Source of the DNA: an uncultured bacterium
GTDB lineage: Bacteria; Hydrothermota; Hydrothermia; UBA1063; CAJXJZ01
Length of the DNA stretch: 64,000 nucleotides
Direction of reading: 5' to 3'
Assembly (NCBI GenBank): GCA_913055745.1
Contig: CAJXJZ010000001.1
Span: 2,798-66,797, forward strand
Part shown: positions 5,323-11,729 of the stretch, in pieces
Layout of the letters: the number at the start of each line of letters is the position of its first letter
How positions within the stretch are numbered: the first letter of the stretch is position 1
The notes under the pieces: generated by a model
Databases searched by the model: none
What the model saw: the letters and a program-made list of their open reading frames with translations, nothing else
What the model was told of the DNA's origin: nothing
Program-made: the position numbers and the translations under genes

Positions 5323-5762
5323 AAACCGTGTTTGAGATATCTGCTGGTGGAGTTGTTTTTAAAAAAGAAGATGCAAACATTTTTGTTTTACTCATTGCTG
5401 TAAAAAACAGTACTGTATGGACACTCCCTAAGGGGCTCGTAGAAAAGGGAGAGGATACAAAAAGGGCCGCAATAAGAGAGGTAAAAGAGGAAACAGGTTG
5501 CACTGGTGAGATAATAGACTTCATAGACAAGGTGGATATATGGTTCTACCTGAAAGAAAAAAATGAAAACACACGCCACCATAAACTTATATACTATTAC
5601 CTCATAAAATACAGAGAAGGGAGCCCCAAGGATCACGATTTTGAGGTAGATGATGTAAAATGGTTCTTGATAGATGAGGCAATAGAGAAGGCCACTTACA
5701 AGAGGGATAGATTGATACTCAAAAAGGCAAAGGATATAATTTATGAAAAGCCTAACACATAA
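5295..5762 (+). CDS. NUDIX hydrolase
   Basis: Nudix box GLVEKGEDTKRAAIREVKEETGC. Confidence 0.8.
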   Translation: MAKTPDNKIKTVFEISAGGVVFKKEDANIFVLLIAVKNSTVWTLPKGLVEKGEDTKRAAIREVKEETGCTGEIIDFIDKVDIWFYLKEKNENTRHHKLIYYYLIKYREGSPKDHDFEVDDVKWFLIDEAIEKATYKRDRLILKKAKDIIYEKPNT

Positions 5763-7098
5763 ACTACTCAGCATTACACGGGCATTGTCAGAGGTCTTTG
5801 AAAGGTCTGATAATCCTGATGAAATCCTATATGCACTGCTTTCTGCAATAACAGCCGGTGAATCTCTTGGTTTTAACAGGGCATTTGCTATGCTTTTTGA
5901 TGAAAATGGCAATCTTTTCGGCTATATGGCTACAGGACCCATATCCCATGAAGAAGCAGACCACATCTGGAAGGATATTGAGGCAAAGAAACTTACACTC
6001 TGGGAAATAATAAACTCATACTCTGTGGAATTAGTAGAAGAGCAGAGAAGGAAATTCTCCCATATACTTGAACATTTAAACTGCAAAAGAGAGGAAATTG
6101 AAAAACCTGATTGTGTTATCGGTAAAGCCCTAAATAAACAAGATGCCACTTTAATAAAAACAAGCGAAATCCACCCATTACCAGAGTATTTAAAGGTCCT
6201 TGGCTCAGAAGAGATTGCAATTGTACCGCTTACAGTTGGAAAAAAGCGGTTTGGTGTAATAATGGCAGATAATTTCATAACAAAACGCTCCATTTCAAAT
6301 ACCACCCTCATTATCTTAGAGAGTTTTGCACTACAGGCATCAACTGCACTATCCAAGGCTTTTTATGTAAGGGAATTAGAAAAGAAAATAAAAACTATTC
6401 AGGAGTATCATAAACGTGCCCTTGAGTTAGAAAAAGCAGCAAGCATTGGCGACCTCGTTTATCACTTAGCCCATGAATTTAAAAACTCTATTTTGGTTAT
6501 TGGAGGGCTTGCAAAAGCAATGAAAGACGATACGCCAGAGGAAGACCCCAGATATCCTTTTGTCCATGCAATTGTAGAGGAAGCGGGCAAACTGGATAGG
6601 TTGCTAACAGCCACCATTAAAGGCTTAAGACAGAACGCCTTTATAAAAAGAGAGAAGGTTGATTTAATTAACCTAATTCAAGAGAAAATACAAAACTTAA
6701 CAGAATATGCAAACGCACATAATGTTAACATTCAATTTAATAGCCCAATTACGCAACTTTTTCTTAATCTCCCAAAAGAACCTTTCTGTGACCTTATAGA
6801 AAACCTACTTACAAATGCCATTGATGCCATGCCAAATGGAGGCACTATATGGGTGTGGGTTGAAAAAGAGAAGAGATATATAAATGTCTATTTTAAAGAC
6901 AACGGCACAGGCATACCAAGAGAACTCCAATCTAAGATCTTTGACCCATTTTTTACAACCAAAGAAAAGGGCTCTGGTCTTGGGCTCTATAATGTGAGGC
7001 AGATATTAAGGAGCATTGGTGGGAATATTGAACTTGTAGAATCAATACCCCACAGGGGAACCACATTTAAAATATATCTACCCTCTGTAATACCATGA
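5743..7098 (+). CDS. GAF domain sensor histidine kinase (orphan, no response regulator adjacent)
   Basis: N-terminal GAF-like domain. HisKA H-box HEFKNSI. HATPase N box (NLLTNAIDAM), G1 (DNGTGI) and G2 (GSGLGL). Confidence 0.8.
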   Translation: MKSLTHKLLSITRALSEVFERSDNPDEILYALLSAITAGESLGFNRAFAMLFDENGNLFGYMATGPISHEEADHIWKDIEAKKLTLWEIINSYSVELVEEQRRKFSHILEHLNCKREEIEKPDCVIGKALNKQDATLIKTSEIHPLPEYLKVLGSEEIAIVPLTVGKKRFGVIMADNFITKRSISNTTLIILESFALQASTALSKAFYVRELEKKIKTIQEYHKRALELEKAASIGDLVYHLAHEFKNSILVIGGLAKAMKDDTPEEDPRYPFVHAIVEEAGKLDRLLTATIKGLRQNAFIKREKVDLINLIQEKIQNLTEYANAHNVNIQFNSPITQLFLNLPKEPFCDLIENLLTNAIDAMPNGGTIWVWVEKEKRYINVYFKDNGTGIPRELQSKIFDPFFTTKEKGSGLGLYNVRQILRSIGGNIELVESIPHRGTTFKIYLPSVIP

Positions 7099-8366
7099 AA
7101 GGCTTTGAGCATCCTATAATAAAGACAAGTATTCCAGGAAAACTCTCAAGAGGATGGGTAAAAAGGATGCAGGATGTGGAAGCACCGAATATTACTTACA
7201 CTGATAAGGACTTCCCTGTTTTTATTAAATCTGCCTTTTTAAACAATGTGTGGGATGTAGATGGAAACATGTTTTTAGACCTCACATCTTTTTTTGGTGT
7301 TGCGTCCATTGGGCATCGCCATCCCAAAGTGCAAAAGATTGTAAAAGAACTTGACATCTACCATGGTATGGGGGATGTACATCCCACGCCTTACAAGGTA
7401 ATGCTTCTTGAGAAACTGAATGCCCTTTTGGGTGGCGGGTTTATGGGGATCTTTGCTCAATCTGGTAGTGAGGCTGTAGAAACATGTATAAAGACACAGA
7501 TGCTTTACACACACAAGCCCAAAATCGTAGTATTTGAAGACGCATATCATGGCCTGGGGTTTGGTGCCATGAATCTTACACAGAGGAAGTATTTTAAAGA
7601 GGGTCTTGAACCATACACAGGACAGTGGGTCTATACCCTACCCTTTTTAGAAAACAACGAAGAGCAGATGCTAAACAATCTAATTCGCCTTTTAGAAGAT
7701 AAAAAAGACATAGGCATGGTTTTTCTTGAGCCTATACAGGGACGAGGTGGTATCAGGATATTTTCCAACCGCTTTCTAAAAAATTTAAGGACGCTTACAA
7801 AGGATTTTTCCGTTCTTCTTGGTTTTGATGAGATATTTACAGGTTCGTACAGAACAGGATATATATCTTATGCAAAAGCTATGGGGATTGATTTTGACCT
7901 TATAACACTTGGAAAAGGCCTTTCATCACAATTTCCTCTTTCTGTATGCATGGGAAAGAGAAAGATAATGGAAATAGCATGGCCAAAAAGCCGAGGTGAG
8001 GCAAAACATACCTACACCTTCTTAGGGCATCCCCTATTTACCCGCGTAGGTCTCGCGGTACTTGATATTATAGAGCAGGAAAAACTCCATGAAAAGGTAA
8101 GAAGAAAGGGCAAAGAATACATTGATATGCTGAAAGAGGTACTTAAAAACAAAAAAGGCATAAAAGACATACGAGGCGCGGGATTTATGATAGGCATAGA
8201 GTTTGAATACAATATCTTTGAACTGGTAAAAAAACTATTAAAAAAAGGCTATATTACACTACCTGCAGGTAATAAGGGTCATGTCCTTGAGATTATACCA
8301 ACATTCTATATAACAGACGAACTATTTACAAGATTCGTGGAGGTACTTGATGGAGTTATTGAATGA
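7095..8366 (+). CDS. class III pyridoxal-phosphate aminotransferase (omega-transaminase type)
   Basis: Motifs GSEAVE, DEIFTGSYRTG and the PLP-lysine region TLGKGLSS. There is an ATGA overlap with the upstream kinase stop. Confidence 0.85.
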   Translation: MKGFEHPIIKTSIPGKLSRGWVKRMQDVEAPNITYTDKDFPVFIKSAFLNNVWDVDGNMFLDLTSFFGVASIGHRHPKVQKIVKELDIYHGMGDVHPTPYKVMLLEKLNALLGGGFMGIFAQSGSEAVETCIKTQMLYTHKPKIVVFEDAYHGLGFGAMNLTQRKYFKEGLEPYTGQWVYTLPFLENNEEQMLNNLIRLLEDKKDIGMVFLEPIQGRGGIRIFSNRFLKNLRTLTKDFSVLLGFDEIFTGSYRTGYISYAKAMGIDFDLITLGKGLSSQFPLSVCMGKRKIMEIAWPKSRGEAKHTYTFLGHPLFTRVGLAVLDIIEQEKLHEKVRRKGKEYIDMLKEVLKNKKGIKDIRGAGFMIGIEFEYNIFELVKKLLKKGYITLPAGNKGHVLEIIPTFYITDELFTRFVEVLDGVIE

Positions 8367-10676: not shown

Positions 10677-11347
10677 TGGAGATCTTCTCATCAATACAGG
10701 GAGAAGGGCCTTATCAAGGAAGGTCGGGGCTCTTTTTAAGATTGGGTACATGTAATTTAAGATGTGCGTTTTGCGATACAGCATATGCCCTTCATCCATC
10801 AAAAAAATGGCAATACCTATCCAAAGCAGAACTTTTGAATCTCCTATTAAAAAAGTACAGTCATAAGTTAAGACATCTTATTATTACCGGTGGAGAACCC
10901 ATGCTCTTTGAAAAACTGCTCTTTGAAGCCATAAGGCCACTGCATCAGAGAATTGAACTTCTTGAAATAGAGACTAATGGAACCATTAAGCCCATGTACT
11001 TTCAAAAATTACCCAATATCGTGTTTAATGTATCGCCCAAACTCTCAAACTCAAAGATGCCTTATAAAAAGCGTATTATAGAAGATGCCCTTTCATTTTA
11101 TTCAAACCTTGAAAATGCCTTTTTCAAATTTGTTATAAAGGATGAAGAGGATTTAAAAGAGGTACTTGATATTAAAGAACGATTTTTTATTCCAAATAAT
11201 AAGGTCTTTCTTATGCCGCTTGGTAAAACTAAAAAAGAACTCCGTCAGAATGCACCAGGGGTTTTTCAACTGGCAAAGACCCATGATTTTAATTATTCAT
11301 GCAGGATTCAAATAGAAATATTTGGTGGAAGAAGACACGGTGTATAA
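10652..11347 (+). CDS. queE: 7-carboxy-7-deazaguanine synthase (radical SAM)
   Basis: The N-terminus [36 protein letters not shown] is the QueE signature, including the Cx14CxxC-type cluster motif. Confidence 0.85.
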   Translation: [231 protein letters not shown]

Positions 11348-11351
11348 CCTC

Positions 11352-11729
11352 ATGCTATTTATGCTTTTTAATCTATCCTATGCAGACCTACTCATAGGAG
11401 AAGACACTCTACATGTAGAAGTTGCAGAAACATTTTATGAGAAGGAAAAGGGCCTTATGTTCAGAACCCATCTTGCACCTGATTCTGGCATGCTTTTTGT
11501 ATTTGAAAGGCCACAAACGCTTTCCTTCTGGATGAAAAACACTCTAATACCACTTGATATAGTGTTCTTAGACTCAGCATTTGTTGTAGTTGATATAAAA
11601 CATGGCATGCCACTTGATACAACCAGTATAATATCATCTTTGCCATGTATGTATGCATTGGAAACCAATATCAATTACTTTAAAAAGCATCATGTAAAAA
11701 AGGGTGATACAATAAAGATAATAAAATAG
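11352..11729 (+). CDS. DUF192 (COG1430) family protein
   Basis: The LIPLDIVFLDS block is characteristic of DUF192. The start is moved to ATG 11352 to avoid overlap with queE. A hydrophobic N-terminus follows. Confidence 0.55.
   Translation: MLFMLFNLSYADLLIGEDTLHVEVAETFYEKEKGLMFRTHLAPDSGMLFVFERPQTLSFWMKNTLIPLDIVFLDSAFVVVDIKHGMPLDTTSIISSLPCMYALETNINYFKKHHVKKGDTIKIIK

Follow-up and report, generated by a model that had tools for sequence, protein, structure and literature searches.

A 64-kb stretch of DNA from an uncultured WOR-3/Hydrothermota bacterium (hereafter, the window) contains, in the region that we followed up (positions 5743–11729), a core of five overlapping genes that encode a class-III (omega) aminotransferase, a LuxE-like acyl-protein synthetase, a LuxC-like acyl-thioester reductase, QueD (6-carboxytetrahydropterin synthase) and QueE (7-carboxy-7-deazaguanine synthase, a radical S-adenosylmethionine, or radical SAM, enzyme). 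We tentatively propose, with a probability of about 0.4, that this core is a single biosynthetic unit, in which dihydroneopterin triphosphate is converted into 7-aminomethyl-7-deazaguanine (preQ1) by a route that bypasses the nitrile. The same tentative reading has WOR-3/Hydrothermota replacing QueC and QueF by a carboxylate reductase of the LuxE/LuxC type and a remodelled class-III aminotransferase. An earlier note on this DNA had put forward such a route: the types of enzyme, the linkage of the five genes and the supply of 7-carboxy-7-deazaguanine (CDG) support it, and a subclade in which the first three genes (hereafter, the triad) are not linked to queD-queE, together with the lack of an adjacent riboswitch, tgt or queA, counts against it.

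Gene order and its conservation, protein folds and the retention of catalytic residues are what we observed directly. All five genes are on the plus strand: the aminotransferase at 7095–8366 (Pfam Aminotran_3, E-value 1e-75), the LuxE-like gene at 8347–9237, the LuxC-like gene at 9206–10267, queD at 10239–10676 (PTPS, E-value 3e-28) and queE at 10652–11347 (E-value 6e-14 with the QueE of PDB entry 5tgs). The start of the LuxE-like protein is more likely the ATG at 8350, because a GGAGG lies 6 nt upstream of it, and its overlap with the aminotransferase gene is thus 17 nt if counted from there and 20 nt otherwise; the following overlaps are 32 nt (LuxE-like/LuxC-like), 29 nt (LuxC-like/QueD) and 25 nt (QueD/QueE). 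We read the triad as co-transcribed with queD-queE, the genes of the two CDG-making enzymes. The order and coordinates of the open reading frames (ORFs) given in the earlier note were reproduced exactly in our ORF map, and the overlaps of 4–32 nt that it described between neighbors hold at every junction, from the histidine kinase gene that precedes the core to the DUF192 gene that follows it.

Both Lux-like proteins were identified by sequence and by structure. Taken as a single sequence, the LuxE-like protein scores 22.6 bits with Pfam LuxE (PF04443), below the gathering threshold of 24.9, but a profile of 27 family members matches the solved Photobacterium LuxE (7xc6_E) over nearly its full length (E-value 5.9e-24); judged from these alignments, it is a divergent LuxE subfamily and not a non-member. 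The catalytic residues of LuxE are Lys238, Arg355 and the acyl-acceptor Cys364, the latter in a C-terminal xxKGCxLS motif (PMC9157457). In the alignment with 7xc6_E, their counterparts in the LuxE-like protein are K190, R283 and C291, invariant in the 27 sequences, and both the SSGTxG P-loop and the C-terminal (R/K)GC with its acyl-acceptor cysteine are retained. Its AlphaFold model has a predicted local distance difference test score (pLDDT) of 92, save for the last nine residues, which bear C291 and are disordered, as would fit a swinging arm. The fold is that of the PaaK-like adenylate-forming enzymes, and several of the PaaK-type ligases among the matches are activators of aromatic acids. 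The LuxC-like protein passes the Pfam LuxC threshold (PF05893; 31.0 bits for a cut-off of 21), and its profile matches LuxC (7xc6_A) with an E-value of 4.9e-6, in an alignment that spans only residues 146–395 of LuxC. Its C193, in the block YFDQRGCLS, aligns with the catalytic cysteine of LuxC in FYDQQACFS; C193 and the motifs LPGNVP and FDxxGCLS are invariant, and the catalytic cysteine and the asparagine of GNVP are both retained. The AlphaFold2 model (pLDDT 86) has 7xc6_A as its top Foldseek match (E-value 3.7e-13, 14% identical), followed by aldehyde dehydrogenases. With respect to their Photobacterium counterparts, the LuxE-like protein has 296 residues instead of 373 and the LuxC-like protein 353 instead of 477 (124 fewer), which amounts to a shortening of 21% and 26% where about 20–25% had been claimed.

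The aminotransferase has as its nearest solved structures the gamma-aminobutyrate (GABA) and acetylornithine aminotransferases (E-values of about 1e-44), and its lysine for pyridoxal phosphate (PLP), in LGK(G/A)LS, is invariant and aligns with K268 of GabT. It departs from these enzymes at R141, E211 and R398 of GabT, residues that we take to handle the substrate carboxylate, to act as a gate and to handle the alpha-carboxylate, respectively. The invariant residues found there are Leu, Arg and Glu, the charges at the last two positions being swapped as compared with GabT and ArgD (E211 to Arg, R398 to Glu), and a five-residue insertion (GEAxH) is also present with respect to both. These changes set it apart as a subfamily of its own, and its substrate, an aldehyde or an amine, probably lacks a carboxylate at the usual place. 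The protein reaches no NCBIfam equivalog cut-off; its sequence places it in the aldehyde/primary-amine branch of class III, nearest to GabT and ArgD. Two of the three residue changes recur in Myxococcota aminotransferases encoded near distant LuxE/LuxC pairs, which share the motifs HGLS and QGRGG, and the residue pattern may mark a candidate, as yet uncharacterized, class-III subfamily partnered with LuxC-type reductases. What the earlier note had said of the three enzymes that accompany QueD and QueE is upheld: they are an acyl-protein synthetase of the LuxE type, a thioester reductase of the LuxC type and an aminotransferase of the omega type, with catalytic residues intact.

QueD and QueE appear ordinary. 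The C-x3-HGH motif of QueD is present and invariant across the loci that carry the five genes (hereafter, cassette loci), and its score with TIGR03367 is 88.8 for a cut-off of 89.25. In QueE, a characteristic ten-residue motif is present, and QGEG, CNLxCxxCDT and an arginine four residues ahead of the radical-SAM CxxxCxxC cluster are all invariant in cassette loci, as is the cluster itself. This arginine is the equivalent of Arg27 of Burkholderia multivorans QueE, which forms a salt bridge with the carboxylate of the substrate 6-carboxytetrahydropterin (CPH4) (PMC5347944). The best NCBIfam matches are QueE equivalogs, at scores under their cut-offs (110 for 260), and the protein is 36–46% identical to archaeal and bacterial proteins that their sources name QueE. 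Because the carboxylate-binding arginine is retained, the carboxylate should survive the reaction, and QueE probably still makes CDG. QueD-QueE should thus deliver CDG, and any carboxylate chemistry of the triad most likely follows QueE.

In the route that we propose, QueD and QueE would make CDG as usual; the LuxE-like protein would adenylate the CDG carboxylate and bind it in thioester linkage to Cys291 of its own flexible C-terminal tail; from there the acyl group would move to Cys193 in the LuxC-like protein, where reduction by NAD(P)H would release 7-formyl-7-deazaguanine; and the aminotransferase would convert this aldehyde into preQ1, for Tgt to place in tRNA on the way to queuosine. 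We infer CDG as the substrate, 7-formyl-7-deazaguanine as the aldehyde, preQ1 as the product, the amino donor and the use by Tgt. The scheme assigns each gene once, leaves no step unfilled and is economical, with one ATP, one NAD(P)H and one amino donor. Each part of this proposed route belongs to an established family, and their combination follows that of carboxylate-reductase/transaminase cascades already described. A precedent for the last two steps is the pair TabE/TabA, in which a reductase of the LuxC cluster and a class-III transaminase convert an acyl thioester into an amine (bioRxiv 10.1101/2025.08.11.669332).

The linkage of the five genes is strictly conserved. Among 5.8 billion proteins, we found 10 clusters of LuxC-like and 25 clusters of LuxE-like sequences; an exact look-up of the window's LuxC-like protein returned no record, and a copy that is 97–99% identical to it occurs on short contigs. 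When species genomes and JGI metagenomes were scanned with the LuxC-like alignment, full-length relatives came only from WOR-3/Hydrothermota metagenome-assembled genomes (MAGs) or from unlabelled metagenome contigs. In all those with a long-enough contig (at least 15 distinct loci), the order aminotransferase-LuxE-LuxC-QueD-QueE is identical and the genes mostly overlap. The loci form two deep clades (30–35% identical for LuxC, 46–48% for the aminotransferase) with entirely different flanks: the window's clade, which includes locus L061 (52% QueE identity), has the arrangement kinase-cassette-DUF192, and in the other, which we call Hydrothermia-type, the cassette stands between a Peptidase_S13 gene and a TonB receptor gene, and the kinase, DUF192 and NUDIX genes of the window are absent. 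The five genes have thus stayed together through extensive genome rearrangement, and the coupling of the triad to queD-queE described in the earlier note extends to a five-gene block shared by two deeply diverged WOR-3/Hydrothermota clades. In several related lineages, queD-queE occurs as a bare overlapping pair that has no queC and no triad next to it, so that the triad looks like an addition to this pair. The bare pairs (loci L024, L025/L026, L059 and L060) lie in unrelated neighborhoods, and one of the MAGs concerned is labelled Hydrothermales. MAGs with the bare pair include GCA_039630235.1, GCA_027006605.1, GCA_054042705.1 and GCA_054010675.1, and those with the cassette include GCA_039803425.1, GCA_027038175.1, GCA_027073945.1, JBNARF01, JALSNX01, DIJZ01 (UBA5631), DCDE01 (UBA1063), QNDO01 and JBDRYG01.

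The genes on either side of the core are less widely conserved. Upstream, on the plus strand, lies the gene of a cytoplasmic GAF-domain histidine kinase (5743–7098; Pfam GAF_3, 35.9 bits, with GAF and HATPase_c), which overlaps the aminotransferase gene by 4 nt (ATGA); its HisKA match of 22.4 bits falls short of the Pfam cut-off, and no response regulator gene lies near it. It is preceded, with an overlap of 20 nt, by a NUDIX hydrolase gene that is outside the conserved core (5295–5762, plus strand; Pfam NUDIX, E-value 4e-21). Downstream, a DUF192 gene (11322–11729, plus strand; Pfam DUF192, E-value 1e-31), whose TTG start is uncertain, overlaps queE by 26 nt. The kinase directly precedes the aminotransferase in L001, L012 and L061, and DUF192 follows QueE in these three loci and in L029, whereas NUDIX is confined to L001 and L012, which are the closest relatives, and is absent from L061 and from the Hydrothermia-type loci. 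Being confined to the window's clade, the kinase and DUF192 are clade-specific accessories, and NUDIX is more restricted still; the kinase and DUF192 genes are thus present as operon members, as the earlier note had stated, but are conserved as such only within the window's own clade. The terminator that it had placed at 11727 is real: a palindromic hairpin at 11723–11752 (13-bp stem with 6 G-C pairs, T runs on either strand) forms a bidirectional intrinsic terminator between the convergent DUF192 and LemA genes, able to terminate both. Other promoter-like and terminator-like matches in the region occur at chance level. The best sigma-70-like match (5712–5740; TTGATA-17-TATAAT, 11 of 12 positions) lies inside the NUDIX gene and ends 3 nt ahead of the kinase ATG; as a candidate internal promoter, it might yield a leaderless transcript of the kinase and the cassette, although such matches are overall as frequent as expected by chance.

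Several known systems resemble the proposed route in part. The closest for the Lux-like pair is LuxC-LuxE of luminous bacteria (PDB 7XC6; PMC9157457), likewise a two-protein carboxylate reductase encoded by adjacent genes, in which a PaaK-like adenylating enzyme, with a Lys/Arg pair and a (K/R)GC cysteine on a flexible tail, works with a reductase of the aldehyde dehydrogenase (ALDH) fold that has a catalytic cysteine. The cassette differs in lacking LuxD, LuxA and LuxB, in its shorter proteins, in the remoteness of the similarity (a subthreshold Pfam score for LuxE, 14% identity in the structural alignment for LuxC) and in the company of an aminotransferase and queD-queE, and its substrate is probably not a fatty acid. 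In LuxC, the C-terminal oligomerization segment P460–P488 completes a long hydrophobic L-shaped cleft for the acyl chain. The standard route after QueD and QueE shares with ours the proposed start, CDG, and end, preQ1: QueC converts CDG into the nitrile preQ0 at the expense of two ATP and ammonia, and QueF reduces preQ0 to preQ1 with two NADPH. The families of the cassette are unrelated to these enzymes; an aldehyde would take the place of the amide and nitrile, an amino acid, through PLP, would replace ammonia as the source of nitrogen, and the predicted cost is one ATP and one NAD(P)H. The sequence thioester-aldehyde-primary amine is found with TabE/TabA (tambjamine BE-18591), TamH and PigE, which combine a LuxC-cluster ALDH-like or thioester reductase with a class-III aminotransferase; these systems act on fatty acyl chains bound to acyl carrier protein and have no self-acylating synthetase of the LuxE type, whereas the context of the cassette is a nucleobase pathway in apparent housekeeping operons. 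Finally, type I carboxylic acid reductases, with their adenylation, peptidyl carrier and reductase domains (A-PCP-R), combine with transaminases to convert an aromatic acid, with ATP and NADPH, into the aldehyde and then the amine; the cassette has neither a phosphopantetheine carrier nor a reductase domain of the short-chain dehydrogenase/reductase type, the swinging arm being the cysteine tail of the protein itself and the reductase having the ALDH fold.

We also looked for other genes of the queuosine pathway and for further links of the cassette. Pfam scans of most ORFs of at least 80 residues (a few of 81–156 residues being left out) found no queC, queF, tgt, queA, queG/H or folE in the 64-kb window. 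This bears out the claimed absence of QueC and QueF from it, as do tblastn searches, and neither protein was found in the window or in the about 60 loci examined, with the proviso that a very divergent single-domain QueF could escape tblastn because Escherichia coli QueF, the query, is of the two-domain type. PADLOC gave no defence-system membership for the cassette, only generic radical-SAM similarity, no DpdA/Tgt-like transglycosylase lies near it, and tblastn detected no Tgt homolog in the window or in loci L001–L054. A literature search of 8 million full-text papers returned nothing tying LuxC/LuxE-type enzymes or an aldehyde intermediate to preQ1, nor did any paper turn up that dealt with QueE alongside LuxC/LuxE, with 7-formyl-7-deazaguanine, with an aminotransferase and an aldehyde in connection with CDG, or with queuosine in WOR-3. 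In their sources, QueE carries its own name, and the other cassette proteins are labelled hypothetical or acyl-CoA reductase.

A number of observations weigh against the nitrile-free route to preQ1. Searches with E. coli QueA, Tgt, QueC and QueF (tblastn) gave no match in the window or in loci L001–L054, and Rfam scans at gathering thresholds of the window and eight cassette loci detected tRNAs only, and neither a preQ1 riboswitch nor another regulatory RNA. Because synteny within each clade is inherited, the linkage of the five genes amounts to two or three independent observations rather than to about 15. Above all, an exhaustive HMMER search of 1.84 billion representatives identified four cassette-type LuxE-like representatives (382–427 bits, before a sharp drop to 232 bits for the much larger LuxE-like superfamily), one of which belongs to a third subclade, with the C-terminus RGCGYVF, that lies away from queDE in the two contexts retrieved. 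In L062 (7691–11927, GCA_054042525.1), Sacchrp_dh, aminotransferase, LuxE and LuxC genes are followed by unrelated genes, with no queDE, and the aminotransferase keeps the signature of the cassette enzyme; this set could be a candidate pathway from an aldehyde to a secondary amine or of the polyamine type. In L063 (10001–14378, ERZ27248120), LuxE and LuxC are followed by genes for a phosphodiesterase and, ahead of it, a protein of the FemAB/GNAT-like type; Wzy and sulfatase genes are nearby, and neither an aminotransferase nor queDE is present; one member of the corresponding protein cluster is labelled Candidatus Aminicenantes. In a neighbor-joining tree, the three subclades together are split from the outgroups in 100 of 100 bootstraps, and the third joins the Hydrothermia-type proteins (bipartition found in 90 of 100), which nests the unlinked state inside the queDE-linked family. 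The earlier note had named the common occurrence of the triad without queDE in relatives as one part of a refutation of its own interpretation, and this is in part what we find, in the one nested subclade (90% in the neighbor-joining tree). The aminotransferase-LuxE-LuxC module can thus exist without adjacent queDE, having been either re-deployed on another acid after transfer or never used on CDG. The columns of the LuxE-like alignment kept in both linked clades and changed in the unlinked one, which might have marked a clear specificity switch, number only 7, not in excess of the phylogenetic control comparisons (14 and 3). One of the 7 is that of window residue E80, a Glu directly before the P-loop, which is kept in both linked clades and is Leu or Val in the unlinked clade; this change is suggestive, as it would suit a polar substrate giving way to a nonpolar one, but it is a lead only.

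The main rival to the preQ1 route is that the triad is a general module converting a carboxylate into an aldehyde and then an amine, with a substrate that has nothing to do with deazapurines (for instance an omega-amino acid, from which a diamine or polyamine would result, or else a fatty acid or some other small acid), in which case its adjacency to queD-queE would reflect operon history or co-regulation. We hold this to be doubtful, while taking it seriously, as L062 joins to the Lux-like pair both a reductive-amination enzyme and an aminotransferase with the same Leu/Arg/Glu signature, the Aminicenantes LuxE-LuxC pair has a cell-envelope context and no aminotransferase, and the motifs HGLS and QGRGG are shared by the Myxococcota aminotransferases mentioned above. 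The LuxE-like superfamily is, moreover, large (912 representatives at E-values up to 1e-30, 3811 representative clusters up to 0.001) and is found, without queDE, in a variety of contexts; the same motifs are retained in it, many members have 320–335 residues and the C-terminal acyl-acceptor motif RGC(S/N)L, and more distant LuxE/LuxC pairs (20–27% identical; Acidobacteriota, Verrucomicrobia, Myxococcota) sit among unrelated housekeeping genes. Yet the overlapping five-gene block has persisted in two deep clades although its flanks were completely reshuffled, the triad has no other acid-producing gene as a conserved neighbor, and the behavior of E80 hints that the substrate switched in the unlinked clade.

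Three further alternatives were considered. If the cassette reduced and aminated CDG, or stopped at the aldehyde, and its product served to modify DNA, as a secondary metabolite or as a signal and not for tRNA queuosine, the lack of an adjacent tgt or queA, the orphan GAF kinase and DUF192 co-transcribed with the cassette in the window's clade and the Aminicenantes pair without an aminotransferase would be accounted for; this seems improbable to us, given that there is no DpdA/Tgt-like gene, PADLOC match, or tailoring or export gene, that purD, dacB-like, TonB receptor and other such housekeeping genes make up the flanks, and that bacterial Tgt takes preQ1 directly. The order of the genes, in which the triad precedes queD-queE, and the scores of QueE below the NCBIfam equivalog cut-offs would also suit an earlier action of the triad, on 6-carboxytetrahydropterin, to give 6-aminomethyl-tetrahydropterin, either contracted to preQ1 by a modified QueE or itself the end product. 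Against this very improbable order, the QueE arginine that binds the CPH4 carboxylate and QGEG are invariant, the protein has its 36–46% identity to ordinary QueEs, those of bare pairs included, and loss of the carboxylate would remove the captodative stabilization of the substrate radical (PMC5347944); we rejected it on the retention of this arginine. Least probable of all, and hardly credible to us, is an ordinary LuxCE fatty-acid reductase making a fatty aldehyde for light, wax or alkane synthesis: the family membership of the two proteins points that way, but luxA, luxB, luxD, an acyl-transferase, an aldehyde decarbonylase and a wax synthase are all missing, both proteins are 21–26% shorter than LuxE and LuxC, and an aminotransferase is always attached to the cassette pair. 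Bioluminescence and wax synthesis were accordingly rejected for lack of luxABD.

The rest of the window shows other features. At 1175–3131, a mannosyl-3-phosphoglycerate synthase gene (Pfam, E-value 7e-152) is followed by that of a HAD phosphatase; the two, which form the two-step pathway to the compatible solute mannosylglycerate, typical of thermophiles and halophiles, are kept upstream of the cassette in L001. The minus strand at 12309–27276 carries a large type IV pilus cluster that encodes a PilY1-like protein of 1136 residues, minor pilins, PilW, a secretin, an AMIN-domain protein, PilO, a PilM-PilN fusion and a prepilin peptidase, together with an unusual protein of 406 residues that has MshEN and DnaA-type ATPase domains (23623–24843). 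ORFs of 484, 118 and 237 residues have no Pfam match (39334–41160 and 59784–60497); the first two come after urocanase and before a lamin-tail-domain protein, and the third lies between a class-A penicillin-binding protein and secD, a place taken in many bacteria by yajC, tgt and queA.

If the nitrile-free route to preQ1 is true, it would be a non-orthologous replacement of two steps of the queuosine pathway, in a pathway regarded as fully worked out, which would imply that this pathway is under-called in genomes that seem to lack queC and queF, and it would add a third enzyme solution to 7-deazapurine biosynthesis. It would also provide a compact, carrier-free carboxylate reductase and transaminase set for a heteroaromatic acid, useful for making deazapurine analogs. 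For the Lux-like proteins, it would be the first physiological role assigned to a nonluminous LuxCE pair acting on a nucleobase. Almost no member of the LuxE-like superfamily has an assigned function beyond bioluminescence, and with this route one branch would receive its first function in the very large, uncharacterized LuxE/LuxC-like superfamily, with its approximately 900 representative clusters at E-values up to 1e-30.

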